IMG/VR virus record: IMGVR_UViG_2737471993_000002
Length of the DNA stretch: 64,000 nt
Direction: 5' to 3' (one strand)
Source: a virus
Taxonomy: Duplodnaviria > Heunggongvirae > Uroviricota > Caudoviricetes
In this document: piece by piece, positions 4,528 to 36,090 of the stretch
How the letters are laid out: every line of letters begins with the position of its first letter
How positions within the stretch are numbered: position 1 is the first letter of the stretch
Notes under the pieces: generated by a model
The model's input: the letters and a program-made list of their open reading frames with translations, nothing else
Databases searched by the model: none
Told to the model about the DNA's origin: nothing
Translations under genes and position numbers: made by a program

Positions 4528-7500
4528 ATGTGGTACAGGGAAGGTACTATCACATTTACACAGGGCAGCAATACTCTGGTTGGGGCAGGGACAGCCTGGA
4601 ACGTAACAGCTAATGGTGTGTTGCCGGGGATGATCGTCATTGGCCCCGACAATAAGCTGTATGAGATCAAGCGCGTAACCAGTGATACGAACATTGTTCT
4701 CTCAGAACCTTATACCGGCGAAACTCAGTCTGAAGTTCCGTGCCGAATCATTACGACCTATGAAGGCGACTTAACACAGTTTAGCGCGCGCTTTACAGCA
4801 CTAATGTCGCGTATGTCGGCTGATTCCAAGTCCATGCGCAGTTGGTTGACTGCTCTGGATGAGGTGACAATCGAGCGTGAAGACGGTACAGAAGTGACCG
4901 TTAAGCCGCTAATGCAGATCGTCAACGAGCACAACGAAAACGTTGAGTGGTATAAAAATAACACTGACGCGATTGATGCTGCTGGCGACAAAGCTCGTGA
5001 GGCGGCGGCCAGTGCTGCCGCAGCAGCAGAAAGCGCCAATACCGCTGGAGAAAAAGCCTCTCAAGCGTCTCAAAGTGCATCCGCTGCAGAGTCCTCAAAA
5101 AGCGCGGCGGCCACCAGTGCCGGTGCCGCGAAAACGTCTGAAACGAATGCTGCAGCGTCACAAAAATCTGCAGCCACTTCTGCATCCACCGCGACCACGA
5201 AGGCGTCAGAAGCTGCCACCTCAGCCCGGGATGCGGCGGCCTCAAAAGAGGCAGCGAAATCATCAGAAACGAGCGCAGCCTCGAGCGCCAGTAATGCCGC
5301 TTCCTCGGCAACGGCGGCAGGAAATTCCGCGAAGGCGGCAAAAACGTCCGAGACGAACGCCAGGTCTTCTGAAACGGCAGCGGGACAGAGCGCCTCGGCT
5401 GCGGCAGGCTCAAAAACAGCGGCTGCGTCGTCTGCCAGTGCCGCGTCAACAAGTGCCGGGCAGGCCTCAGCCAGTGCCACCGCCGCCGGAAAATCGGCAG
5501 AAAGTGCCGCATCGTCTGCTTCAACAGCCACAACGAAGGCTGGCGAAGCCACTGAACAGGCCAGCGCAGCAGCGAGGTCTGCTTCCGCAGCGAAGACATC
5601 CGAAACGAACGCGAAAGCGTCGGAAACCCGTGCAGAATCCTCAAAAACGGCAGCCGCATCGTCCGCCAGTTCGGCAGCGTCATCGGCATCATCTGCGTCT
5701 GCTTCAAAAGATGAGGCGACCAGACAGGCGTCAGCAGCGAAGGGCAGCGCCACGACGGCATCCACGAAAGCAACAGAGGCGGCAGGCAGTGCGACGGCAG
5801 CATCTCAGAGCAAAACTGCTGCTGAATCCGCTGCGACCCGTGCGGAAGCTGCTGCTGATCGTGCTGAAGAGATTGCCGGTGCAGTTGCGATGGAAGACGC
5901 AAGCCTTACAACTAAAGGTGTTGTGAAACTTAGCAGTGCTGTCGACAGCACCAGTGAATCGCTGGCCGCAACGCCAAAAGCAGTTAAAGTAGTCAATGAC
6001 AATGCGAACAGCAGGGTGCCATCTAACCGAAAAATTAACGGGAAAGCACTGACTGCGGATATCACATTAACGCCGAAAGATATTGGTACTTTAAATTCAA
6101 TAACGATGTCTTTCTCTGGCGGGGCCGGGTGGTTCAAACTGGCTACTGTTACAATGCCACAAGCGAGTTCCATCGTTTACATCGCATTGATTGGTGGCGC
6201 TGGTTACAACGTCGGCTCCCCACATCAGGCAGGCATTTCAGAACTGGTTCTACGAGCAGGCAATGGAAACCCCAAAGGGATTACAGGTGCTTTGTGGAAG
6301 CGTACAGCTGTCGGATTAACGAATTTCGCCTGGATCAACACATCCGGCGATACATATGATATTTACGTTGAGATTGGCAATTATGCGACTCGTGTAAATA
6401 TCCATTGGGATTGTACTGCAAATGCGACAGTTTCTATTTATACATCGCCAACATATTCAGCGAGTAAGCCTTCCAGCGTTACCGATGGTGTTGTTTATAC
6501 GATGTATAGCACACATCAGAAACCGACGCCGTTAGATATTGGAGCACTGCCAACAACCGGAGGAACAGTTTCAGGTCAGTTGTCTGTTACTGGTGGGATC
6601 ACCGGAACATTAAATGGTAATGCAAGTACAGCAACGAAATTGCAGACGGCAAGATCTATCGGTGGAGTTGGTTTCGACGGTTCTGCAAATATCAACCTTC
6701 CAGGTGTAAATACTACGGGTAATCAGAACACCACTGGTAATGCTGCAACTGCTACAAAACTTCAGACGGCAAGAACTATCGGCGGCGTGAGCTTTGATGG
6801 TACTGCGAATATTAATTTGCCAGGTGTTAATACGGCTGGTAATCAGAATACAACGGGCAACGCGGCTACTGCTACGAAGTTGCAGACTGCGCGTACTATC
6901 AATGGGGTGTCGTTTGACGGCTCGGCAAATATTTCCTTGTCGCCAGCAAATATAGGTTGCCCGGCATCTCCTACTGGTTGGTTAACTACAGGAAGTAATG
7001 GCGGAGCAATAACAACAGCACAGTTAGTGACGTTATTGCAAAATAATGGAGCATTTAACACAAAGTCATGGATTGCTCGATGTGCGTGGGCCTATGCCAA
7101 TAGTGCAACCATACCAAATAGTGAAACTGGTTGTGGCGTTATTCCATTGGCAGGAGCTGTTATAGAGGTATTTAATAACGGTAGTAGCTCAAACAATTAT
7201 ACGATCCGTATAACAACGGCCACAACGACGAGTGTCTCTGGTGCTCTCACTAATGCGGAGTTTATCTATGTATTTAATGGCACATATTATTCTCCGGGAT
7301 GGCGAAGAGTATATAACACGAAAAACAAACCAACAGCCTCTGATGTCGGTGCATTACCTCTTACCGGTGGTACATTATCTGGAGGTTTGACATCTTCTGG
7401 CGAGATCATTTCAAAATATGCAAATGGTTTCCGCATTGCTTACGGTAGCTTTGGGTTCTTTATCCGTAATGATGGATCGAACACATATTTCATGCTAACA

Positions 7501-9095: not shown

Positions 9096-9788
9096 ATGAA
9101 GACTCCGAGAGGCATTCGTAATAATAACCCCGGTAATCTTGATAAAGGATCACCGTGGCAAGGTCTGGTTGCGAATCCAGACGAACCGCGCTTTTGCACG
9201 TTTAAAGACCCTGTTTGGGGGATTCGTGCGCTGGCGGTGACTCTAATTACCTACCACGACAAACGTCGCGCAAAAGACGGCTCAAGTATCGATACCATTC
9301 GTGAAGTTATTGAACGTTGGGCACCGCCGAATGAAAACAACACTGACGCCTACATTAATGAGGTGTCTAAAGCCGTTGGTGTAACCGCAGACATGATCAT
9401 CGATCTGCATGATTACGACATCCTTCGACCTTTGGTTGAGGCAATCATTCGCCACGAGAATGGTCGAGGTCCACTAAAAACGCTGAACACCTGGTATGCG
9501 GCAGAAGTTATTGAGGAAGGTCTGCGTCGAGCTGGCGTCGTTAAGCCGGTGAAAACCGTGAAGGCTGTTCCTGTAACTAAAGAAACCGCTGGCGCAACTG
9601 TTACAGCAGGTATTGGTCTGGCGCAGCTGGCCGATGTTATGCCGCAGGTTTCCGCTGCTATGGATAAAGCACAAGGTCATATCTCTAGCGGGGATACAGT
9701 ACGCATCATCTTCGGTATTGCCACTATTGTTGTGGCTGGATTTATCGCCTGGTCGCAGGTAAGAAGACACCAGAAAGGGATGGTCTAA
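9096..9788 (+). CDS. Putative cell-wall hydrolase / endolysin-like protein (uncertain)
   Basis: ATG at 9096 with AGGAG upstream (track start 9069 is GTG). N-terminal GIRNNNPGNL motif recalled from muramidase-like phage proteins; position between membrane protein and spanin-like genes. C-terminal hydrophobic segment is atypical for an endolysin. Confidence 0.3.
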   Translation: MKTPRGIRNNNPGNLDKGSPWQGLVANPDEPRFCTFKDPVWGIRALAVTLITYHDKRRAKDGSSIDTIREVIERWAPPNENNTDAYINEVSKAVGVTADMIIDLHDYDILRPLVEAIIRHENGRGPLKTLNTWYAAEVIEEGLRRAGVVKPVKTVKAVPVTKETAGATVTAGIGLAQLADVMPQVSAAMDKAQGHISSGDTVRIIFGIATIVVAGFIAWSQVRRHQKGMV

Positions 9789-9789
9789 T

Positions 9790-10041
9790 ATGCTAGGCAG
9801 CCTGATGACAAAGCTAAAAGTTGCTTTGATTACGCTGGCTGCCGTTCTTTTCGTTCTTGTCGGCGCTTACACGATGGGCGGAAATGCGGCGCGACGAGCA
9901 ATGGAAGAGAAGGCAAAACAGGAAGACAGAAAACGACTTCAAAGCACAGTGGATGTCAAAAATGAAACGGTTAATGAAGTGCGGCAAAAAGATGCCTCTG
10001 GTGTTCATCGCGAGCTGCTTGATAAATGGGTGCGTGATTAA
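9790..10041 (+). CDS. i-spanin (Rz-like) candidate
   Basis: N-terminal transmembrane helix (KVALITLAAVLFVLVGAY) followed by charged coiled-coil periplasmic region; start overlaps preceding stop (TAATATG). Confidence 0.35.
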   Translation: MLGSLMTKLKVALITLAAVLFVLVGAYTMGGNAARRAMEEKAKQEDRKRLQSTVDVKNETVNEVRQKDASGVHRELLDKWVRD

Positions 10042-24187: not shown

Positions 24188-24262
24188 GATGGTGTAGCTC
24201 AGCGGTAGAGCAGTTGGCTGTTAACCAACTGGTCGGTGGTTCGAATCCACCCACCATCGCCA
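24188..24262 (+). tRNA. tRNA-Asn (anticodon GTT)
   Basis: Acceptor stem GATGGTG/CACCATC, anticodon loop CTGTTAA, T-arm GGTGG-TTCGAAT-CCACC, discriminator G and encoded CCA. Confidence 0.8.
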
Positions 24263-24267
24263 ATTTA

Positions 24268-24354
24268 GGGGAGTTAGTCCGTAGAGGTAGCGGTGTAGAC
24301 TGTAAATCTACTGTCATTGCGACTCGGGTGGTTCGACTCCATCACTCCCCACCA
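24268..24354 (+). tRNA. tRNA-Tyr (anticodon GTA), long variable arm
   Basis: Acceptor GGGGAGT/ACTCCCC, anticodon loop CTGTAAA, long variable arm, T-loop GGTTCGACTCC, encoded CCA. Confidence 0.75.
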
Positions 24355-24358
24355 AATT

Positions 24359-24434
24359 GCCGGTTTAGCTCAGTTGGTAGAGCGCCTGCCTTGTAAGCAG
24401 GATGTCAGCGGTTCGAGTCCGTTAACCGGCACCA
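24359..24434 (+). tRNA. tRNA-Thr (anticodon TGT)
   Basis: Acceptor GCCGGTT/AACCGGC, D-arm GCTCAGTTGGTAGAGC, anticodon loop CTTGTAA, T-loop GGTTCGAGTCC, encoded CCA. Confidence 0.8.
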
Positions 24435-24658
24435 ATACAACGATAAGATCATTACGGTTAATCGTCGTTCATGTGCACAATGACTGGTCGAAAGGTAGTG
24501 ATCTTACCGTTGTGGTGGATTCGCAGACTGATGCGATAGCTTTCTTGGATGTTAGGGAAATGCGGCCGCAAATCTTCCCTTTCGCGAGCGGTGATCGTCC
24601 GTAGTCCTAATTGGCTGCACCGTATGCCGGAGATTCAGTACCGGCCACCACAATGGCC

Positions 24659-24745
24659 GGAGAGTAGGGAGCATGGTGCTCAAGCGGTCTTGAAAACCGT
24701 CCCATTGCGCAAGCGATGATGGTTCGATTCCATTACTCTCCGCCA
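24659..24745 (+). tRNA. tRNA-Ser (anticodon TGA), long variable arm
   Basis: Acceptor GGAGAGT/ACTCTCC, anticodon loop CTTGAAA, long variable arm, T-loop GGTTCGATTCC, discriminator G plus CCA; D-arm is atypical. Confidence 0.6.
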
Positions 24746-24940: not shown

Positions 24941-26275
24941 TCATGCCAAATTATCCAGATTTCTTTTCTTTTTTTCAATTATATTTCTCGCGCCAGAAAA
25001 AATTTTACTCAAAATAATTGGTTTGCTTGCTCTATTATTAAGATGTAACAACGCGCTATAAAATACATAGTTATCTATTTTACTATTTAAGGTATTCCCA
25101 AGCTTCCCGTTATATGTGCTATTAATAGTATTAAAATATACATGTTCAGGACCTATATTACAAATACCCCTATCAACTCGCTTTAAATAATGTTTAACTA
25201 AAGAAATAGCATCTTCCTTATCATTAATAACATAAAGTCCTGAGCGTTTACCTAGCTTGCTGTCCGAGAATAATTTATAACCAATAAGTTCATTTAACGT
25301 ATTATCCACTTTTGTCAACTCTTTGTTGGCAATCTCCAGATAATACTCAATCTCTTTCTCCATATTACTTATTAAAGAGTTAAATTCTGCTCGTAACAAA
25401 TCACCACCAGGTGATTTATAACTCCATAAAATTGAATTGGTAATACGTACTACGTCAGATATTTCTGGTTTCTCTGAATAGTTTTTGTATCTAGTGCAAA
25501 TAATGCTGTGCTTTATATATTCTCTAACTAATGATCGATAATCCCTTTCGAAAAGGTTTTTGACATCTAGTCTTCCATTGCTTGTTGTTATTAGGGTGGT
25601 GTTTAAAACTGGGTCGCCTTCAAAAAAATTATATTTATTTAGTAATCGTTTTAGCTTGTGTGAATTATGTGATGTTTCGCCATAATAATTTATCCCAAAA
25701 ATAGCAATTATTAGCATAACATCAGGAGTGATGAAATGTCGTAATTGCTCGGCATAAACTTTTTTCTCTTCGATTTTCGAAGATGGAGAGTAAAAACCTT
25801 TGTCTATATATTCTAATATTGAAACAATATTACTAACATAACGTATAAAAACTTGATTCATTACAACGGAATCATAAACCTGATGCAAATAATCTACTCT
25901 CAAGTTGTTTTTTATTTTTTCCCCTGTACTAGATGATAACTCTTCTTTTACCTGCCCAAGTAGCTTTTCGTGGTGCTCCAGCAATGTTTTAAACCATTGT
26001 TCAAATGATGATTTTCTTGCCTCAGTTAATGAATCTGATGTTATCTGGACAGCTTTCATAGCTGCTTTCGCACTTTTCTTTGCTTCATAAGCGTTCCATG
26101 CTGTAGCACAAAAAGCTGCCGCCGTGATGCAACTGGTAAAAATAGAAATCCTATCTGCAACATTCAAGCTCCAGAACCAATCAGACGATGAAATCAAAAC
26201 CACAGATATTACGGGAACAATGAAAATCAAAACAGGCATGTATGTACTCGCTCTAATAGTTATTAGTCGAGGCAA
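24941..26275 (-). CDS. AT-rich membrane-anchored protein of unknown function (candidate accessory/defence gene)
   Basis: 444 aa (alternative start at Met13); two N-terminal TM helices then large soluble domain; AT content far above the flanks; next to tRNA cluster and recombinase. Confidence 0.5.
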   Translation of the reverse strand: MPRLITIRASTYMPVLIFIVPVISVVLISSSDWFWSLNVADRISIFTSCITAAAFCATAWNAYEAKKSAKAAMKAVQITSDSLTEARKSSFEQWFKTLLEHHEKLLGQVKEELSSSTGEKIKNNLRVDYLHQVYDSVVMNQVFIRYVSNIVSILEYIDKGFYSPSSKIEEKKVYAEQLRHFITPDVMLIIAIFGINYYGETSHNSHKLKRLLNKYNFFEGDPVLNTTLITTSNGRLDVKNLFERDYRSLVREYIKHSIICTRYKNYSEKPEISDVVRITNSILWSYKSPGGDLLRAEFNSLISNMEKEIEYYLEIANKELTKVDNTLNELIGYKLFSDSKLGKRSGLYVINDKEDAISLVKHYLKRVDRGICNIGPEHVYFNTINSTYNGKLGNTLNSKIDNYVFYSALLHLNNRASKPIILSKIFSGARNIIEKKKRNLDNLA

Positions 26276-26874: not shown

Positions 26875-27978
26875 ATGAAAAATAGCTTTGACAGAGCACG
26901 CGCTGCGGAGAACACCTCAAAAGAGGCGATTGAGTATCTCGAAAGAGCATCTCAAATGCAGGCCGTTATGATCTCGCAGGTTAGCAATGATATGAGATTC
27001 TCGGACGCATTCATGTTATTCACTCGCTTATCTCTGCTGATAACCAGACGTCGGCCAGAGATCGCTGTTCATTGTATTTTGATACATGTTTTGCCGCACA
27101 TTGCTGATGTAAAAGTAAGTGACATTAATAGGTTCATGGTGAACCAACTGGTCAACCCTCTAATATTGGATGGCAAAATTGTTATGGGCCGCCGCGTTTT
27201 CTCTCTGATGAAGCAGTTCCTTAGCTGGTGCGCCTTCCAGGGGATGATAGACGTGTCACCGCTAAACGATATGTCACTAAACAAAGTTGCCGGTGGCGCA
27301 AAGCCCACACCTCGCGAGCGGAAGCTGACCGACGCAGAGGTATGGGTGTTCTGGAATATATGGGACTACTTCAATGTGTGTGCTGGTACAAAATGGGCGG
27401 CCAGGCTATGTCTTGTATCCGCAAGACGACCTGACGAAGTACTGCGGGCTAAAAAAAGTGAGTTCAATCTTAAGCGTGGGGTTTGGAATCAAGGCAAGAG
27501 GAACAAATCTGCCCGTGAGCATTCTCTGCCTTTAAGCTCATTAATGCGCACTTGTATTGAAGAGTTGTTCGAATATGGTAAAGACAGCCAGTGGCTCGTG
27601 CCTTCGAATAAAAAAATCGGGAAAGACCTTCCTATGTCTAAAGTGGCAATAGCCCAGGCATTACGTCGTATTCTGGAACGACCAGAACTGATGGAGCTTG
27701 AGCCATTTACACCCCGAGATTTGCGCCGTACTGCGCGTAGTTACTTCCCAGCATTAGGCATAAGCCAGGAGGTATCACGTAAAATCATGAACCACAGTCT
27801 TGAGGGGATAGATCGGGTCTACGACCGGCACGATTATATGGACGAGATGCGAGACGCCTTAGAAAGTTTCTCGACGTACATCGCATCAATCGTAGAGCAA
27901 CCGGATTTAGACGAAATTGACCACAAATTTAAGGGAGATCGTCTATCAACAGAGCTTATTCGTGTAAATTTTTCATAG
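26875..27978 (+). CDS. Tyrosine recombinase / integrase
   Basis: Conserved boxes ARRPDEVLRA (R..E), RDLRRTARSYF (box II R), MNHSLEGIDRVYDRHDY (H...Y catalytic region); 367 aa. Confidence 0.7.
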   Translation: MKNSFDRARAAENTSKEAIEYLERASQMQAVMISQVSNDMRFSDAFMLFTRLSLLITRRRPEIAVHCILIHVLPHIADVKVSDINRFMVNQLVNPLILDGKIVMGRRVFSLMKQFLSWCAFQGMIDVSPLNDMSLNKVAGGAKPTPRERKLTDAEVWVFWNIWDYFNVCAGTKWAARLCLVSARRPDEVLRAKKSEFNLKRGVWNQGKRNKSAREHSLPLSSLMRTCIEELFEYGKDSQWLVPSNKKIGKDLPMSKVAIAQALRRILERPELMELEPFTPRDLRRTARSYFPALGISQEVSRKIMNHSLEGIDRVYDRHDYMDEMRDALESFSTYIASIVEQPDLDEIDHKFKGDRLSTELIRVNFS

Positions 27979-28359
27979 AGACTTTATGGCCTCAACAACC
28001 TTTTGTGATGCGCCTTTCTCTTTACCGAATCGCTCGTTATATGCAGCAAGAACCTGTTTTTCGTCCTCGTTAAGAGGAGCAGTGCCTTCTTTGTATAAAA
28101 ATGCTGCGAGTTCGGGTTGGCGTTCTTCCAGCACCATCATCATAAGACGACTTGGCTCAATGCCCAGTGCCAGCGCCAGCGGACGAACCTTATCGATAGG
28201 CAAAGGAATTTTGCCGCTTTTAATTAAAGAAAGGTTGTTGGCGTTTTTATACCCAATTGTTTTGGCTATCTGGGCCTGGCTCATAGGTGAGGATTCAATC
28301 AACCCTGCGATAAAAGCAGCGTAGCGACTTTCTATAAATTCAATCTTGTTATCAGACAT
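27973..28359 (-). CDS. HTH transcriptional regulator (Cro/CI-XRE type)
   Basis: MSQAQIAKTIGYKNANNLSLIKSGK helix-turn-helix; convergent with recombinase; divergent AT-rich promoter region at 28360-28610. Confidence 0.6.
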   Translation of the reverse strand: MSDNKIEFIESRYAAFIAGLIESSPMSQAQIAKTIGYKNANNLSLIKSGKIPLPIDKVRPLALALGIEPSRLMMMVLEERQPELAAFLYKEGTAPLNEDEKQVLAAYNERFGKEKGASQKVVEAIKSL

Positions 28360-28610: not shown

Positions 28611-28823
28611 ATGAACACCACTATTTCCAGCCTAATCGCTCTTGAGATCGGACACGTACAGAAATTAGCTGATGAGTGTGTAGCTGACATCCTCACCGAT
28701 CTACCGAATGAGCAGATTCAGGTTGGTGTGAATGACACAACTGGCTTTATATTCGAACTTAACAACAAACGCTTCACGCTTCTCAATACCGGCTCCTGGT
28801 CTTTAGCCGTCAGAATCTGTTAA
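28611..28823 (+). CDS. Hypothetical small protein
   Basis: 70-aa ORF in divergent region; weak support. Confidence 0.3.
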   Translation: MNTTISSLIALEIGHVQKLADECVADILTDLPNEQIQVGVNDTTGFIFELNNKRFTLLNTGSWSLAVRIC

Positions 28824-28921: not shown

Positions 28922-31030
28922 ATGTCTAAAAAACGTTCCATCAAAGAGGTTCAGGACTTCCGTGACAGTGTAAAACGAGTAGTCGCTCTCCTTTCAGGTA
29001 AAAACATCCCTGTTGCAGAACGAGGGGACGACGCTTATGTACGCTATAACGATGATGGAGAGCCAATTCTCGTAAACATCCCATCAATCCCGGATAACGC
29101 AACACCGGCATTGATGAATGCTGTGCGCGGATTTCTCGATCATGAGGTTGCTCACATTTTGTTTACCGATATTCGTGTGTCCAACAAAATGAGAGAAAAA
29201 GGACGCGTTCCTTCCTGGTCGCTATGGAATGCCTTAGAAGACGTGTTCATCGAGCGAAAAATGGGTCAGGTCTTTAACGGAACAAGACGTAATCTGATGG
29301 CAACTCAGCGCCTTATAATCGAAAAAGTCTTTAAACCAAAGGCTTCAGAGGCTATTGCTTATTGTGGCAAAGATCAGCGCGCGCTTTTTCTAAACTTCTT
29401 TCTCTGTCCGGTTGTAAGAGCCTGGGATGGCCAAGCACCGTTCGTAGATTTCATGGATGAATATTGGCCTGTCATTGAGAAACCAATTTCATTATTAAAA
29501 GAACATGGTATCGATGTGGCCGTGCGTAACATGTCTTGCACCGAGGATTGTGTAAAGGTGGCTGCGACCATAGCTAAGATCCTCAAAGACACTGAAAGTG
29601 AAAGCAAAGGTAAGGAGTCAGCTCCGGGAAAAACTTCCGATCCTTCAGACGCTGACCAGACGGATGCCTCTGGAGAAAACAATGAAGACAACGAAGATCA
29701 TGAGACACCCTCAGCGTTAGATAATCACAAATCTATCAAATCAGAATCACACAGTAAGCACAAACATGATAATAACGACAGTGATGATTCAGATAATTCT
29801 GAATCATCAGAAACAATATTCGATGATACAGAAAATGATAAAGAGGTATCAGATTCTGGTGCTTCTGATAACGCGGCGTCAGAATCATTTACCACTGACC
29901 ACGAAAAAAGAAAATCGACAGAAGACGGCTCTTCAGACATTCCAACTCCGTCAAAAATGAGTCTGGAAGAGGCTTTAGAGGAGTTGGATAGCATGGAAGA
30001 TGAAGTCGGAGGCATGACAGAAGATGCGCTATCCGAAACGATTAAAAGCGAGTTAACAGAAAGCTCGAAAAGCGAATACAGGCCATACAATCGCTCATAC
30101 GACTTCATCGGCTCGATTGATCAGGCAGAAGCCCATATCAAACGGCTTATTAAAACATTCTCCGATATTGATTTAGGTGGATATCCAATCAGCCGTTATC
30201 GCATCGTTCCTGAAGGCAACCAACTCTTCGACAAATATATTGAAAAGCACCTTTCGTCAGGTGTTTCGTCGACGCTGGCAAAAGACCTGGAACGTGCAAT
30301 AGCAAGCAGAAACAGAGTTCAGTTTATACCTGGCCAGCGTCGGGGGCGCATTCATGGTTCAAGTATCTACAGATTAACAATGAATGATGATCGCGTGTTT
30401 CGTAAAAAAGAAGAATCTAAAGCCGTTAACGCCTGTGTTCAACAAGTGATTGATTTATCGGGTTCAATGAGTGGCGAAACGATAAAACTAGCTCTTGCAA
30501 GTGCATATACCATCGCCGATGCACTTGATCGAATAAATGTTCCCAACATTATCACCGGCTTCACTACATTTGGTAGTCATATGGCGGCAGGAGAACTTAA
30601 GGCTGTCAAGTATGAGTTCTCTCGCTTTGAATCTTTAATGCTACCTATCATCAAAAATTGGAATGAAAAGGTAAATTCTCGCGAAGTTCGCTCACGTATG
30701 GGGTGCGTAGGCTACACATTCCCACTTCTTAATAACGTGGATGGTGAAAGCATAGCCAGCCTTGCATCGTTATTTTCCGGTCGCATGGAGGACAGGAAGA
30801 TCATGCTTGTTCTGAGTGATGGCGCGCCGTGGGCTGTTGGGAGAGGTTTTGACGCTCATTTGCGTTCAGTTGCGAAGCAAATTGAAACGCAGACTGATAT
30901 TGATTTGATGGCAATTGGCATCATGACTGACGCACCGGAGAGATTTTACTCAAATCATGCCCTGGTAACGAGCGTTGATAGTCTTGGTTCATCTGTAGTT
31001 ACTGAACTATCTCGTATCATTTTAAAGTGA
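28922..31030 (+). CDS. vWA-domain protein (CobT-like) with acidic Ser/Asp-rich disordered insert
   Basis: C-terminal von Willebrand A MIDAS motif DLSGSMSG; central ~150-aa highly acidic S/D/E-rich region; paired with downstream AAA ATPase. Confidence 0.65.
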   Translation: MSKKRSIKEVQDFRDSVKRVVALLSGKNIPVAERGDDAYVRYNDDGEPILVNIPSIPDNATPALMNAVRGFLDHEVAHILFTDIRVSNKMREKGRVPSWSLWNALEDVFIERKMGQVFNGTRRNLMATQRLIIEKVFKPKASEAIAYCGKDQRALFLNFFLCPVVRAWDGQAPFVDFMDEYWPVIEKPISLLKEHGIDVAVRNMSCTEDCVKVAATIAKILKDTESESKGKESAPGKTSDPSDADQTDASGENNEDNEDHETPSALDNHKSIKSESHSKHKHDNNDSDDSDNSESSETIFDDTENDKEVSDSGASDNAASESFTTDHEKRKSTEDGSSDIPTPSKMSLEEALEELDSMEDEVGGMTEDALSETIKSELTESSKSEYRPYNRSYDFIGSIDQAEAHIKRLIKTFSDIDLGGYPISRYRIVPEGNQLFDKYIEKHLSSGVSSTLAKDLERAIASRNRVQFIPGQRRGRIHGSSIYRLTMNDDRVFRKKEESKAVNACVQQVIDLSGSMSGETIKLALASAYTIADALDRINVPNIITGFTTFGSHMAAGELKAVKYEFSRFESLMLPIIKNWNEKVNSREVRSRMGCVGYTFPLLNNVDGESIASLASLFSGRMEDRKIMLVLSDGAPWAVGRGFDAHLRSVAKQIETQTDIDLMAIGIMTDAPERFYSNHALVTSVDSLGSSVVTELSRIILK

Positions 31031-31045
31031 ACAAAACAGCCTTAA

Positions 31046-31068
31046 CGATAAGTAACCACTTACGATAG
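31046..31068. promoter_or_regulatory. Palindromic operator-like motif (CGATAAGTAACCACTTACGATAG)
   Basis: Motif-family member ~57 nt upstream of start at 31126. Confidence 0.4.
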
Positions 31069-31125
31069 ATAATGATATATTTATATAAGAAGTTGAACGC
31101 TCATTAGAAAACAAAGGAAAAACGC

Positions 31126-32361
31126 ATGACTACTACTGCACTGCAAAATGAAAAAAATCCTTCTGATTACCTTGTTTGCAAGTGGTGCGGAAAATCATTT
31201 CACTATTTTAAGTCCCATGTAGCCAATGGTAATTGCGAGGGCATTCCTGAGTCAGTAAAAGATGCCGATCCTGACACCGTACTGAAAATGTACACAACAC
31301 AGTTTCCAGATGAGCCAACGCTATCGAAAAAGGCACTTGATGCAATTCAAGCTAAACGTGCCGAGCAAAAAAGCGAAATGGCCAAATCATCTGGCGTGAC
31401 CAGTAGCCCAGGCTACACAGGCACAGTTGAGTACAAGACAGATCTGGTCGCAGCTCACGAACTGCTAAATGTAACGGTGAAAGAACTCGGAACAAAACGT
31501 GGGACGCCGCTCATGGTTAGCGTCAACGTCAATACGCCGTTTCCAGAGTTCGTTCCAGAAGTGAAGAAGGGATACGTATATGGCGACTTCGAACTGATCA
31601 AAGACATTTTCATGATGCTTGAACTTGGCATACCTGGCTATTTGTGGGGTCATGCAGGAACAGGCAAATCTTCATTGCCTACACAACTATGTGCTTTGCT
31701 CAATCGTCCGTTAATCCGTGCCCAACATACAGCATCAATGGAAGAGGCTCATGTTACGGGACAAATTCTGGCGCGTGATGGCTCTACGTATTTCGAGCCT
31801 GGCTTGCTTGCGCTCGCAATGAAGCATGGCTGGGTTTACCTCGCGGATGAATACGACTTTGCGTTTCCACAGATTCTTGGCGTGTATCAGCCAGTGCTGG
31901 AAGGTGAAGCGTTGGTCATCAAAGAGGCGACTCCAGAATGGCGTCGCATTACTCCGCATGAACGGTTTGCTTTCATTGGCACTGGCAACACGAACGGATC
32001 TGGTGATGAAACCGGCTTGTACCAGGGTACAAACATCCAGAACGCCGCGAACTTTTCGCGTTTTGGCATCGTTTCGAATGTGAAATACATGAGCAAAGAG
32101 GCAGAGATCAACATGTTGATAAATGCCGGTATCGTGGATGAATACGCAGAAAAGATGGTTAAGTTTGCCGGTATCGTTCGCGATGGATACGAAGAACACC
32201 TTATCAGTCAGCCAATTGGCCCTCGTGAACTTTTGTTGTCGGCCAAGATTGGAATGATGCGAGGCGACTTTGTGACAGGTATTGAGCGTTCTTTCATTAA
32301 CAAACTCCCTTCAGCTTCTGCACAAGCGGCTCGTGAAGTTGTTCAAAAAATATTTGGTTAA
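31126..32361 (+). CDS. AAA+ ATPase (CobS/MoxR-like) with N-terminal Cys-rich zinc-ribbon-like extension
   Basis: Walker A GHAGTGKSS, Walker B VYLADEYDF; N-terminal CKWCGKSFHYFKSHVANGNC. Confidence 0.65.
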   Translation: MTTTALQNEKNPSDYLVCKWCGKSFHYFKSHVANGNCEGIPESVKDADPDTVLKMYTTQFPDEPTLSKKALDAIQAKRAEQKSEMAKSSGVTSSPGYTGTVEYKTDLVAAHELLNVTVKELGTKRGTPLMVSVNVNTPFPEFVPEVKKGYVYGDFELIKDIFMMLELGIPGYLWGHAGTGKSSLPTQLCALLNRPLIRAQHTASMEEAHVTGQILARDGSTYFEPGLLALAMKHGWVYLADEYDFAFPQILGVYQPVLEGEALVIKEATPEWRRITPHERFAFIGTGNTNGSGDETGLYQGTNIQNAANFSRFGIVSNVKYMSKEAEINMLINAGIVDEYAEKMVKFAGIVRDGYEEHLISQPIGPRELLLSAKIGMMRGDFVTGIERSFINKLPSASAQAAREVVQKIFG

Positions 32362-32541
32362 TCGTGCGTAAAGGATGTTTCGGCTCTCTTATCGCTGCTT
32401 CTGAAACTGGTAAGGCTTGTCTGGTGTGTCCAGACAAGCCCGATTGTCACCAATCAGCAAAAGAAGTTGCGATTTCGATGCATGGGAAGTTCGTAGGCTT
32501 CCCCAATGACAAAATCAAAAAAACCAGAAAGGTAAAAACAC

Positions 32542-35500
32542 ATGAAGGCACTGATGGTTCGAACTGACTTCTCACTTGGGGAGTCGGCTCTAAAAGCAGA
32601 AAACGCGGTGAAGATTGCCAGAGAAGCTGGCTACACCGCTGTAATTTCAGCAGATAGCATGAATATTGCGAGCGTTATTCCACTACAACGTGCCGCTGGT
32701 GACGACATGGCGGTTATTTGTGGTGTGAAACTAAACATTGTTGATGATCCCACATACGAGCACCGGGCTAAACTTGCTAAAGAATCTATGAGATGTATGG
32801 AATCATTAGAGCGGGGACGTAACTACTCGTTTACCGCTCTAATTAAAAATGAGCAAGGATATCGCGACATCTGCGAACTAATGACGGCGGCCAACACACG
32901 AGAACAGTTCTACTTTGTACCGCGTCTCTCGCTCGAACAGTTGGTTTCTACATATGCCAAAGGCAACATCATCCTGCTTACTTCCGACATCGGTAGCGTG
33001 TTCCAACGCAACGATTTTGCAAAAATCATAAGCACACTGATTACAGCGGGTGGAAAAGACAACTTCTATAGTGTGGTTTATCCGCACCCTACCCCATTCT
33101 ACGACCAGATTAACGTCCGGGCGATGAAAGTCGCCAGCGCATTGAAAATAGAGCCAGTGGCGTTCTATCCCGCTTATTACGAATCGATCGACGATGCAGA
33201 CATTAAAGACATTGCGCACATGGTTACGAACAACATCAAAATCGACCAGCCGCATCGTCTGCGTATCCCCCACCAGCGAGATAACGCCGTCAATGGTCGC
33301 CGCCATCTCCTTGAGGCGCTTAAAGCCTTCTCCGTTCGCATGGATGTGCCGGTAACAGCTGCAATGGCCTCAACAACGCAGGATACCATTATCGATGCCT
33401 GCACATGGCGCTGGCATGAATTGCCGCCAGCACTGCCAAAGATGGCAGACGACGAGCCTGCAACGCTTATGAAACTGGCTGTTGCAGGGCTGCGTAAACG
33501 TCTTACCACAAAAGAGTTTGGCTACACACCACCTGCTTCTGAGAACAGGGTTTATGTTGAGCGGCTAAAGTACGAAATGGACACGCTGACTCGCCTGGGA
33601 TTTTGTGGTTACTTCCTGATGGTACGCGATCTGATGAATCATAGTCGTGAAACTGGCATTCCCGTTGGGCCTGGTCGTGGTTCCTCTGCCGGTTCTCTGG
33701 TGGCGTGGTGCATAGGCATAACCAACGTCGACCCAATCCGTCACGGTCTTCTGTTTGAGCGTTTCATCAACCCTGAGCGTCTCGACTTGCCGGATGCGGA
33801 CTTGGACTTCAGCCAGGCACGTCGCCATGAGGTGATCGAGTATCTGAATGAACGCTACGGCGAAGATTACGTTGCGGGTATTCCGAACTTCACCTACCTG
33901 GGCGCAGCCTCTGCACTACGTGATACCGCTCGTATTTATGGTGTGGAGTCCGCAGATATGGCGGTATCAAAAGAACTGAAGAACGTCGAGGATGATAGCC
34001 TTCCATTGGAAGAGCTGCGCGAACAACTGGCAAGTCTCGACAAATACGCAACAAAATATCCTGATGCATTCAATGCAGCCTGCAAGTTACAAAGCCTTAT
34101 GCGTGGCTTTGGTAGACATGCGGCAGGGATGATCGTAGCAGGTGTTCCTCTGACAGAACGTACACCGGTTGAGCGCCGTGGTGACGCGCGTTGTATCGCA
34201 TTTGACAAGCGTTACTGCGAGGCTATGGGCCTAATTAAGCTGGACGTGCTTGGCCTGGCAACTCTCGATTTGCTCGATAGTGCAAAACGCTACATAAAAG
34301 AGAACACAGGTGAAGATATCAATCTTGATGCCATTTCTCTTGAAGATCGCAAGGTGCTGGATGGTTTTGCTGCTGGGTACACTCAAGGTGTTTTCCAGCT
34401 TGAATCAGGCCCAATGCGCAAGCTGCTTAAAGATTTAGGTGGTGGAATTGAGCCAATGAGCTTTAAAACGGTCGTCGCTACAACTGCGCTCTTCCGGCCG
34501 GGGCCAATTCAATCAGGCATGTTGGATGACTATGTTTCTGTCGCCAAAGGCTTTATGACGCCGGAATCATTACACCCCGTTCTTGATGAACTTACCGCGG
34601 AAACAAATGGCGTGATTCTCTATCAGGAACAGACGATGAACGCGACTCGATTGCTTGCCGGCTTCACAATGGCTGAAGCTGACGCTGTGCGTTCCGCAAT
34701 CGGTAAGAAGAACATGGAAAAAATGAAGAGCATGGGCGAGAAGTTCATCGTTCAGGCTCAAGCTGGCTGGATAGACGTTGAGCTGGAAGATGGCACTACA
34801 CAGCGCATTCACCGTGCGGAACATTTTAAATGCGAAGACGGAACTCTGAAAACTGTCGAAGAGGCACTTGAGCACGGCGCAAAACTACCTATAAACGCAG
34901 TACGCGTTACAGCGTCACATCCAGGGCTATCAGAGATGAAAGCGAAGGAGATCTGGACCGCATTTGAGAAAAACGGAGCCTATCAGTTCAATAAATCACA
35001 CTCCGTTGCTTATTCTTTAATCAGTTATCAGTCTATGTGGCTAAAGACGCACTACCCTGCTGAGTTCTTCGCAGCTGCGCTCACCATTCTGGGCGAGGAT
35101 AAGCATCAGGGGCTGGTGAAGGATGCGCTGACCTATGGCATTCGCGTATTGCCACCAGACGTTAATGTGTCATCTAACCGAATTGAGATCCGCACACTCG
35201 AAGACGGCAGTCAGGCACTGTATGCGCCATTCTCTGCTGTGAAAGGCTGTTCTGAAAATGGTTGTCAGGCAATTATGCGTGCGCGTGAGAAAGTTGGTGG
35301 CAAATTCGAGTCAGTGGCACAATTCGATGAAGCGGTCGAGAAGCGTGCATGTAACAGTCGTGTACGCGAGTCGCTTCATAAAGTAGGGGCTTTTGCGTCA
35401 ATTGAGCCAGGCAGTCTGCCAGCAACTGATCCTGAACGACTGCGCGACCAGGCTGAGCTGATGGGCAATCTCATCATTGACGCTGTTAAAGCATCACGTC

Positions 35501-36060
35501 CGTTCGAAATGAATCCTAAGCGTTCTGCCGAAATCAACGTACTTATGACACGTATGGCGGCTGAAATGGGCTTGGGTGAGGAGTTGATACGCCCGACTAT
35601 TGGTATTAAACCCAAAATCATGATCATTCTGGACAATGCGAACGGCAATGACGCTCGTACCGGCTACTTCATGGAGAACGGATACGACGACTTTAAGGCA
35701 AAACTACTGACAGTTGGAGATCTGCGCATGGGCGATCTTTATGTCACGGGTGTTTGTAAGAAGGTTAAGGACAAAGAGAAAGACTATACCAAAGACGAGA
35801 TAGGCCAGTTCACAGACTTTATGCGGGAAGAAATTAATCTTGTACGACCAACCTACATTTTGACGTGTGGTAGTCGTTCAACCGCACTATTTAACAATAA
35901 GAGTAAACCATCAGATCTGATTGGTCGTAAGGAGTACTTCCCAGAGCTTGATGCAACCGTCTTCTACGGATTTAACCCGAATATCCTGTACTTCCGACCG
36001 GAAGAAGGAGAGCGACTGGAGGCCATTCTGGCTGATATCGCGGAGACAATAAATAAGTAA
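32542..36060 (+). CDS. dnaE: DNA polymerase III alpha-type replicative polymerase (DnaE-like, with PHP domain)
   Basis: 1172 aa; Pol-beta-like palm motifs GPGRGSSAGSLVAWCIGITNVDP and LPDADLDF; N-terminal PHP-like region. Confidence 0.85.
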   Translation: MKALMVRTDFSLGESALKAENAVKIAREAGYTAVISADSMNIASVIPLQRAAGDDMAVICGVKLNIVDDPTYEHRAKLAKESMRCMESLERGRNYSFTALIKNEQGYRDICELMTAANTREQFYFVPRLSLEQLVSTYAKGNIILLTSDIGSVFQRNDFAKIISTLITAGGKDNFYSVVYPHPTPFYDQINVRAMKVASALKIEPVAFYPAYYESIDDADIKDIAHMVTNNIKIDQPHRLRIPHQRDNAVNGRRHLLEALKAFSVRMDVPVTAAMASTTQDTIIDACTWRWHELPPALPKMADDEPATLMKLAVAGLRKRLTTKEFGYTPPASENRVYVERLKYEMDTLTRLGFCGYFLMVRDLMNHSRETGIPVGPGRGSSAGSLVAWCIGITNVDPIRHGLLFERFINPERLDLPDADLDFSQARRHEVIEYLNERYGEDYVAGIPNFTYLGAASALRDTARIYGVESADMAVSKELKNVEDDSLPLEELREQLASLDKYATKYPDAFNAACKLQSLMRGFGRHAAGMIVAGVPLTERTPVERRGDARCIAFDKRYCEAMGLIKLDVLGLATLDLLDSAKRYIKENTGEDINLDAISLEDRKVLDGFAAGYTQGVFQLESGPMRKLLKDLGGGIEPMSFKTVVATTALFRPGPIQSGMLDDYVSVAKGFMTPESLHPVLDELTAETNGVILYQEQTMNATRLLAGFTMAEADAVRSAIGKKNMEKMKSMGEKFIVQAQAGWIDVELEDGTTQRIHRAEHFKCEDGTLKTVEEALEHGAKLPINAVRVTASHPGLSEMKAKEIWTAFEKNGAYQFNKSHSVAYSLISYQSMWLKTHYPAEFFAAALTILGEDKHQGLVKDALTYGIRVLPPDVNVSSNRIEIRTLEDGSQALYAPFSAVKGCSENGCQAIMRAREKVGGKFESVAQFDEAVEKRACNSRVRESLHKVGAFASIEPGSLPATDPERLRDQAELMGNLIIDAVKASRPFEMNPKRSAEINVLMTRMAAEMGLGEELIRPTIGIKPKIMIILDNANGNDARTGYFMENGYDDFKAKLLTVGDLRMGDLYVTGVCKKVKDKEKDYTKDEIGQFTDFMREEINLVRPTYILTCGSRSTALFNNKSKPSDLIGRKEYFPELDATVFYGFNPNILYFRPEEGERLEAILADIAETINK

Positions 36061-36066
36061 TAAAGA

Positions 36067-36090
36067 AAACCCGCCTGTTGGCGGGTTTAT
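36067..36090 (+). terminator. Rho-independent terminator
   Basis: AAACCCGCC-TGTT-GGCGGGTTT immediately after the polymerase stop. Confidence 0.7.

Follow-up and report, generated by a model that had tools for sequence, protein, structure and literature searches.

An adaptor–ATPase pair of the CobT/CobS type with an intact HExxH motif and a predicted Ros/MucR-type zinc finger in an Escherichia coli phage-plasmid

CobN, CobS, and CobT belong to the aerobic cobalamin pathway; Salmonella uses CbiK. In CobST, as in NorQD, a shaft or finger of the protein with a von Willebrand factor A (VWA) domain enters the pore of the ATPase hexamer, and the ATP-driven motion is passed via this adaptor to the client. 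According to a preprint on CobSTN (10.64898/2026.07.21.739949), CobT has an M48C-peptidase-like N-terminal domain (one helix, three strands, and eight helices), a disordered linker of about 90 residues, a shaft (Q373 to R413) entering the CobS ring, and a VWA domain with a MIDAS (metal ion-dependent adhesion site) made of D422, S424, and S426, and the two domains of CobT hold CobN between them like a clamp. This study deals with a CobT/CobS-like gene pair in the window, that is, the whole stretch of 64,000 nucleotides analysed here, from the Caudoviricetes record IMGVR_UViG_2737471993_000002. The 3.6-kb region of the pair shares 98.7% identity with pLF82, the SSU5-like phage-plasmid also called Escherichia phage Cyrano, 99.9% with E. 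coli plasmids of about 110 kb, and about 74% (DNA) with Salmonella phage SSU5. The window is an SSU5/Cyrano-like E. coli phage-plasmid. The region was found in 244 of 5,426 complete E. coli genomes, and it was plasmid-borne every time.

The pair has long been annotated and a viral cobST cluster is already in the literature, where cobS and cobT are described as core genes of T4-like cyanophages. The viral cobST or "MoxR plus metallopeptidase-vWA" pairs of T4-like cyanophages, jumbo phages, haloarchaeal viruses, and ICP2 have both families adjacent and in the same order as in the window. In contrast to the window pair, they have no DnaE linkage, and the roles proposed for them are B12 synthesis and virion assembly. 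A sequence-only reading of the window had remarked that the role of such pairs in the viral cycle is not understood, which was borne out. The "host defence evasion" (hde) operon of IncC plasmids and SXT elements offers a further comparison. Deleting vcrx089-090 lowered the transfer of an IncC plasmid into Vibrio cholerae with a type I restriction-modification system 25-fold in an hsdR-dependent manner, and raised restriction 424-fold (EcoBI) and 906-fold (EcoKI) in E. coli. In addition, a preprint reports on a MoxR ATPase that a phage requires for overcoming a defence system.

The CobT-like and CobS-like proteins

The sequence-only reading had proposed a vWA and AAA+ (CobT/CobS-like) pair followed by a small Cys-rich open reading frame (ORF). 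All three were found on the + strand where it had placed them: the CobT-like gene at 28922–31030 (702 aa), the CobS-like gene at 31126–32361 (411 aa), and the small ORF at 32364–32567 (67 aa). Pfam and PDB matches upheld the nature of the pair. The CobT-like protein matches Pfam CobT at aa 9–294 (1.9e-27), CobT_C/VWA at aa 492–701 (1.7e-82), and phrog_1576 (1e-300), and its aa 440–697 match the solved CobT (9uka_G) at 4e-17, or 1e-55 with a family profile. In the AlphaFold model (mean predicted local distance difference test score, pLDDT, 73.5), the order of the elements is that of the solved CobT: N-terminal domain, disordered acidic linker, shaft, and VWA domain.

The N-terminal domain (aa 1–230, 28922–29611, +) consists of a helix, three strands, and eight helices in the model, which is the layout given for the M48C-peptidase-like CobT N-terminal domain in the crystal-structure description. 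Five of five N-terminal domains tested match Pfam CobT (best 3.6e-24). It was found that this domain carries an HEVAH motif of the metal-binding or catalytic zincin type (H74-E75-x-x-H78, 29141–29155, +), whose two His and Glu do not vary across a set of 41 diverse homologues (about 30% identity). Invariant in the same set are N103, E106, D107, and E111 of a candidate third-ligand "glutamate helix" (N103-x-x-E106-D107-x-x-x-E111, 29228–29254, +); the aligned stretch of the solved CobT is DAVEQARVE. Both the HExxH motif and the downstream Glu motif are present in 238 of 240 full-length homologues. In the model, strands at 31–53 precede the HExxH helix (62–81), and the Glu residues lie on helix 97–117. 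Thus, the zincin layout, in which HExxH sits on a helix after a small beta-sheet and is followed by a downstream Glu, is present. A phrog_459 "peptidase" match (4e-6) spans aa 72–128, while Pfam peptidase models gave no match with the CobT-like protein or the N-terminal domains. The domain is therefore described here as a candidate for an intact M48-like zincin metallopeptidase site.

The solved CobT differs at this very site. R76-G-L-G-D80-S-M-A-L-R85 of CobT aligns to R69-G-F-L-D73-H-E-V-A-H78 of the window protein. Since the solved CobT has S81-M-A-L-R85 at the position of the intact HExxH, the chelatase adaptor seems to have lost the motif, while the form on mobile elements keeps it. This comparison is based on the sequence of the solved CobT entry itself; searches of the PDB with the N-terminal domain as a single sequence and as a five-sequence profile did not retrieve the CobT N-terminal domain, and the full 41-sequence profile aligned it with only 4 bits. 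Literature searches found no paper contrasting the viral HExxH with the solved CobT.

The acidic linker rich in Ser, Asp, and Glu occupies aa 231–338 (29612–29935, +), where the pLDDT is under 50. The sequence-only reading had described it as an insert of about 150 aa and as an unusual accessory domain. It is real and disordered, with a length of about 110 aa by pLDDT and about 120–150 aa by composition, but it is not unusual. The solved CobT also has a disordered acidic linker of about 90 aa, whose counterpart residues are 208–293, and thus the insert is a hallmark of the family. The predicted shaft (about aa 464–503, 30311–30430, +) aligns to Q373–R413 of CobT and includes the invariant residues G471, R473, G475, D489, R491, V492, and F493 (41 homologues). 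The VWA domain (30431–31030, +) contains the C-terminal MIDAS motif noticed earlier, in the string VIDLSGSMSG at aa 509–518. Its key residues D511, S513, and S515 (D511-x-S513-x-S515, nucleotides 30452–30466) are invariant in the 41 homologues, and D633 belongs to the same site. The structural neighbours of this domain are the midasin MIDAS domain and NorD.

The CobS-like protein matches AAA_5 at 2e-15 and phrog_249 at 2e-106. Its AAA+ module (aa 141–411, 31546–32361, +) has a CbbQ_C-like lid and matches the solved CobS (9ujv) at 1.8e-25, while genuine CobS aligns nowhere else in the protein. Walker A is GHAGTGKS (nucleotides 31648–31671) and Walker B is LADEYD (nucleotides 31834–31851). In 34 homologues of 45–80% identity, K181, D241, E242, N288, R312, and R367 are invariant, and CbbQ_C was detected in 24 of the 34. 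Thus, the MoxR-type catalytic set (Walker A and B, sensors, and Arg finger) is intact. In Foldseek, NorQ and CbbQ were the top matches of the AlphaFold model (pLDDT 87.4), with a TM-score of about 0.85–0.87 on the target. NorQ/NorD and CbbQ/CbbO therefore provide the best structural matches for the ATPase, and also a strong VWA match and the finger- or shaft-in-pore mechanism. On the other hand, these systems act on metalloenzymes encoded close by, and they lack both the zinc finger and, in the adaptor, an M48-like N-terminal domain.

The Cys-rich N-terminal extension of the CobS-like protein had been called zinc-ribbon-like. The extension is present, and a loose form of its motif is conserved in 108 of 113 full-length homologues, but its type is a different one. 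The Cys/His set is C18, C21, H26, H31, and C37. In the 34 homologues, C18 is invariant, and C21 and H31 are at least 90% conserved. The family consensus, I-x-C-x2-C-G-x3-H-x4-H-L-x3-H…Y…P-D-A-P-x-L-S, has a ligand spacing (C-x2-C-x9-H-x4-H) identical to that of Ros. A profile of the N-terminal region has Ros87 (2jsp) as its top PDB match (3.4e-5), with C24, C27, H37, and H42 of Ros87 aligned to the conserved ligands, and Pfam ROS_MUCR matches 10 of the 34 homologues (best 3.2e-4). The region is confidently folded in the AlphaFold model. On these alignments, the extension is most readily assigned to the Ros/MucR-type zinc fingers (C2H2/C2HC) rather than to zinc ribbons. The predicted finger domain lies at aa 14–75 (31165–31350, +), with C18, C21, H31, and C37 as candidate ligands (nucleotides 31177–31236). 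Two features set it apart from Ros/MucR. It is fused to an AAA+ ATPase instead of an oligomerisation domain, and in the enterobacterial clade of the window the last His is replaced with Cys37 after a short insertion, with one extra residue, which makes the window protein a C2HC variant. The homologues of cyanophages, Staphylococcus phages, Listeria phages, and IncC have no finger; for the CobS of these phages, this follows from alignments that begin at about aa 115–160. A literature search for a MucR-CobS fusion found nothing.

How close is the pair to a cobaltochelatase (EC 6.6.1.2)? In common with the CobSTN motor (PDB 9uka, 9ujv, and 21vu), it has the MoxR-class CobS fold, the CobT domain order, the DxSxS MIDAS, and significant matches of both proteins. 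However, the CobT equivalog model TIGR01651 gave 74.6 bits against a cut-off of 759.05, and the CobS equivalog model TIGR01650 gave 84.8 bits against 558.55. The scores are about 10–15% of the cut-offs, and on profile evidence the pair falls outside the housekeeping cobaltochelatase equivalogs. At its N-terminus, the CobS-like protein is longer by 140 aa, which include the finger, and, in a reading of the CobS alignment, several pore positions that contact the shaft differ. By these sequence criteria, the pair belongs to the CobS/CobT (MoxR-VWA) superfamily and does not appear to be a cobaltochelatase. No CobN partner and no other cob gene were found in Cyrano, a closely related complete phage genome, and the only window ORFs longer than 1000 aa encode two tail proteins and DnaE.

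It has been proposed in PMC8651126 that viral CobST commandeers host CobN, and the viral CobT homologue is noted there as often annotated as a peptidase. As auxiliary metabolic genes, the pair would hijack host CobN (or a ChlH-like protein) to raise cobalamin synthesis. This reading is the origin of database names such as "porphyrin/cobalamin biosynthesis protein", and the homology to CobS and CobT, shaft and MIDAS included, speaks for it. Nevertheless, it is the least probable of the roles considered here, and very improbable in itself. Besides the low equivalog scores and the missing CobN, genuine CobT and CobS do not have the intact HExxH and the zinc finger, and the genes of the window lie in an early/replication operon of a phage. 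The ribonucleotide reductase of Cyrano is of class Ia, which is B12-independent. The hosts E. coli, Salmonella, and Klebsiella are not known to have an aerobic CobN route (host genomes were not searched here), and E. coli is not known to make the corrin ring de novo. CbiB is absent from E. coli, and Salmonella, as stated above, relies on CbiK. The intact protease-type motif and the zinc finger, together with the lack of a chelatase partner, therefore make a protein-remodelling machine, possibly an anti-restriction machine, more likely.

A conserved operon with dnaE

The small Cys-rich ORF had been regarded as weak in the sequence-only reading. In fact, its protein (67 aa, GTG start, with C5, C19, C22, and C28) matches phrog_6337 at 3e-45 and is 88% identical to SSU5_051, while the DNA is about 74% identical. 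The ratio of nonsynonymous to synonymous substitutions (dN/dS) is 0.15–0.25 at a dS of up to 0.88, and all four Cys are retained. Judging from this pattern, the ORF is a real gene under selection, although it is unannotated in RefSeq. It begins 2 nucleotides past the stop codon of the CobS-like gene and overlaps the start of dnaE by 26 nucleotides, so that the sequence junctions couple the CobS-like stop, the 67-aa ORF, and the dnaE start. The protein can be aligned with the N-terminal part (GCFGS…C..C….C) of the 167–226-aa phrog_3616 proteins encoded directly upstream of dnaE in distant relatives, and it is the counterpart of their N-terminal Cys4 module. This link is drawn from synteny and alignment and not from an exhaustive representative search with the 67-aa protein, which gave only seven short relatives.

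The operon consists of a 70-aa ORF (28611–28823, +; phrog_2627 at 1e-39), the CobT-like gene, the CobS-like gene, the 67-aa ORF, and dnaE, and it diverges from a gene for a CI-like helix-turn-helix repressor (27973–28359, −). The repressor has a weak HTH_19 match and corresponds to the "putative repressor" CYRAN_45 of Cyrano. The list of genes with expression in the LF82 lysogen includes CYRAN_45 but not CYRAN_47 to CYRAN_49. An ORF of 62–64 aa is found in the position equivalent to that of the 70-aa ORF, ahead of the CobT-like gene, in distant loci. The last gene of the apparent transcription unit encodes a DnaE-type DNA polymerase III alpha subunit (32542–36060, +) with the Pfam domains PHP, DNA_pol3_alpha, finger, and HHH_6. 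No terminator-like site was found on the + strand from 28.9 to about 35.4 kb; a weak 5-pair site lies inside dnaE (35373–35390), and a strong hairpin just past it (36067–36088).

Is this gene order common? A first scan for related loci gave close relatives only and was repeated with a distant-only alignment. In the distant relatives (30–60% protein identity), which include metagenomic viral contigs of about 100 kb, Acinetobacter plasmids, and Rhizobium phage V1VFA-S, the repressor is followed in turn by a small ORF, CobT-like, CobS-like with finger, sigma-70-like, the Cys-rich phrog_3616 protein, DnaE, gp32, 5′–3′ exonuclease, and RecA. Among 80 diverse IMG/VR loci, the CobT-like gene lies directly upstream of the CobS-like gene in 67 of the 72 that could be tested. 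DnaE is encoded just downstream in 66 of 71, and a Cys-rich protein is encoded between the CobS-like gene and dnaE in 66 of 71. These counts follow a strict criterion of the best high-scoring segment pair (HSP), and the exceptions listed are single-HSP artefacts. The module order CobT-CobS-(sigma)-Cys-rich-DnaE-gp32 thus holds in essentially all 80 loci.

A protein with sigma-70 region 2 is encoded directly after the CobS-like gene in 60 of 71 loci (for example, 9182–9856 in locus L083, 10325–10990 in L089, and 8257–8901 in L092). This sigma factor gene is lost in the enterobacterial clade of the window. The DnaE of distant relatives (L083 10387–13809; L085 9739–13083) has a C-terminal uracil-DNA-glycosylase domain, and in the Acinetobacter plasmids dnaE, a NUMOD4 gene, and the uracil-DNA-glycosylase gene are separate. 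About 215 C-terminal residues of the window DnaE have no Pfam match. At its N-terminus (MKALMVRTDFS), the window DnaE has no HxH, the metal motif of PHP domains. The idea that the pair is a metallochaperone for the DnaE PHP domain was rejected as unlikely for this reason.

The gene order raises the question of whether the pair is a replisome-associated chaperone that matures, loads, or remodels the replication proteins of its own element (DnaE, the Cys-rich protein, gp32, and recombination proteins) on DNA. The strict adjacency to dnaE with translational coupling, the order kept in about 80 diverse loci including Rhizobium and Acinetobacter elements, and the DNA-binding-type fold of the finger would all suit such a role. 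NorQD and CbbQO act on operon neighbours, MoxR-VWA pairs activate the enzyme encoded alongside, and the IncC pair flanks ssb-bet-exo. However, T4-like cyanophages, ICP2, and IncC/SXT have homologous pairs with no DnaE, metal insertion into PHP is unlikely as stated above, and the synteny may be merely inherited. Moreover, the only genetic data for the family indicate restriction evasion. This role is rather unlikely, yet it comes second among the readings considered.

It was also considered whether the pair folds or processes structural proteins as a virion-assembly chaperone or protease, as has been proposed in the case of jumbo phages and demonstrated for an archaeal virus tail. Group 2.2 jumbo phages have the same architecture, a MoxR ATPase and a vWA protein with a metallopeptidase fused at its N-terminus, and the role was inferred for them. 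In the window, about 20 kb separate the pair, which lies in an early/replication module by the repressor, from the genes for head, tail, and lysis. Homologues are found in conjugative plasmids and integrative and conjugative elements, which make no virions, and a DNA-binding-type finger is hard to square with capsid or tail maturation. A role in virion assembly is therefore improbable, ranking only above cobalt chelation.

Homologues in IncC plasmids and the possible role of the pair

A tblastn search with the CobT-like protein revealed more than 800 conjugative plasmids that encode a "VWA domain-containing protein" with a homologous N-terminal domain. The VWA protein of the IncC plasmid R16a has an HEAAH motif and is colinear with the CobT-like protein of the window (23% identity, 2e-22). 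The CobS-like AAA+ protein of R16a (Vcrx089) is 30% identical to the window CobS-like protein over 285 aa (9e-28). Like the window pair, the two R16a proteins belong to phrog_249 and phrog_1576. The R16a operon has the order AAA+, hypothetical, ssb, bet, exo, DUF3150, and VWA, and its AAA+ gene is vcrx089 of the hde operon. Thus, an AAA+ protein and an HExxH-VWA protein of shared PHROGs are found in a DNA-metabolism operon of a mobile element in both cases. In contrast to the window, ssb-bet-exo lies between the AAA+ and VWA genes of R16a, the AAA+ protein is without a zinc finger, and Vcrx090 and the DUF3150 protein have no homologue in the window. Vcrx090 (302 aa, at 1783–2691 of the R16a locus L088) has no Pfam or PHROG match; the DUF3150 protein is encoded at 5639–6916 of this locus.

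Because IncC plasmids are protected from type I restriction by the homologous AAA+ gene in combination with vcrx090, a counter-defence role comes to mind for the window pair as well. By analogy, I tentatively favour a reading in which the pair is an early-expressed, ATP-driven remodelling machine that most likely serves counter-defence or the takeover of the host, acting on DNA that is entering or being replicated. In order of preference, counter-defence is placed first, the replisome chaperone second, virion assembly third, and cobalt chelation last, with some probability left over for other roles. A scan of the four operon proteins with PADLOC gave only a marginal DrmE match (6.6e-4).

The counter-defence machine might work as follows. 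By homology to the solved CobST and NorQD, the CobS-like protein would form an ATP-driven hexameric ring, and the predicted shaft of the CobT-like protein (about aa 464–503) would be inserted into the ring pore. A client would be gripped between the VWA/MIDAS face and the M48C-like N-terminal domain, tethered to each other by the disordered acidic linker. ATP hydrolysis would twist or pull the CobT-like adaptor, and thereby the client would be remodelled. Since the HExxH…E site is intact, the client may also be cleaved by the zincin site of the N-terminal domain. The Ros/MucR-type finger may tether the motor to DNA or to a DNA-bound partner, and DNA-bound restriction complexes are an example of a target that would be disabled. 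The pair would act early after infection or induction, because its genes are the first large ones of an operon that faces the repressor and are coupled to dnaE. The position in the operon and the absence from the list of lysogen-expressed genes fit a function at entry or induction.

Several points weigh against counter-defence. The role in the phage-plasmid is argued by analogy with IncC, where the phenotype maps to vcrx089 and vcrx090 jointly; anti-restriction was shown for vcrx089-090 only. A tblastn search of the window found no Vcrx090 homologue (best E = 0.25). The identity to Vcrx089 (30%) is not above the identity to genuine CobS, and the IncC AAA+ protein does not carry the finger that would tether the motor. 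HExxH alone is no proof of protease activity, and Ros/MucR-like folds can be non-DNA-binding. The strict adjacency to dnaE and the habit of MoxR genes of adjoining the gene of their client suit a replication role equally well. In addition, synteny within one viral lineage may reflect only common descent.

A broader version can be imagined, in which phage-plasmids, many phages, and IncC/SXT elements share an ATP-driven, DNA-tethered metalloprotease machine that cuts or strips DNA-bound defence enzymes, type I restriction complexes for instance, at entry. Its parts would be a MoxR-type ring and a VWA adaptor with a shaft and an active M48-like zincin site, joined in the lineage of the window by the Ros/MucR finger. 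Housekeeping CobST would then be a protease-dead relative of this machine. I consider this broader version doubtful, more so than either the counter-defence reading itself or the replisome chaperone.

Names of the pair and what they imply

The names given to the pair in databases vary. In PGAP, the product of the first gene is called "cobaltochelatase CobT-related protein" and that of the second "AAA family ATPase". In the Cyrano record (L001, OV696614.1, 6001–9440), the pair is named "dimethylbenzimidazole phosphoribosyltransferase" and "cobalamin synthetase". These names result from a transfer error between the Pseudomonas and Salmonella cob nomenclatures, since the Salmonella CobT and CobS are unrelated proteins.

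Other genes were also noted. At 24188–24745, upstream of the lysogeny module, the window has a cluster of four tRNA genes (Asn-GTT, Tyr-GTA, Thr-TGT, and Ser-TGA), and the Cyrano annotation holds three of them (Asn, Thr, and Ser). A 444-aa ORF (24941–26275, −) in a low-GC patch (about 0.39) is located between the tRNA cluster and a glutaredoxin gene, where Cyrano has other small genes. A membrane segment is predicted at its N-terminus, its putAbiC match falls below the threshold (21.4 bits against a cut-off of 22), and it is a candidate for an abortive-infection-like moron.

The fusion of the finger to the ATPase, the retained HExxH that is missing from the solved CobT, the deeply conserved order CobT-CobS-(sigma)-Cys-DnaE, and the homology to the IncC hde operon appear to be undescribed. 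The sequence-only reading had missed the intact HExxH, the conserved operon with dnaE, and the homologous pair of IncC/SXT hde. Matches to viral cobS/cobT were found in 799 phage records, and virome studies routinely count these genes as cobalamin auxiliary metabolic genes. The lineage of the window shows the cobalamin label to be unsafe, because CobN is missing, the zincin motif has stayed intact, the motor carries a finger, and the genes belong to an early/replication operon. Through its homology to the hde operon of IncC, the pair offers a counter-defence alternative that can be tested in tractable phage-plasmids of E. coli K-12 and Salmonella. If true, counter-defence would provide a function for one of the commonest unexplained gene pairs of phages, and the pair would represent a new mechanistic class of anti-restriction factor.

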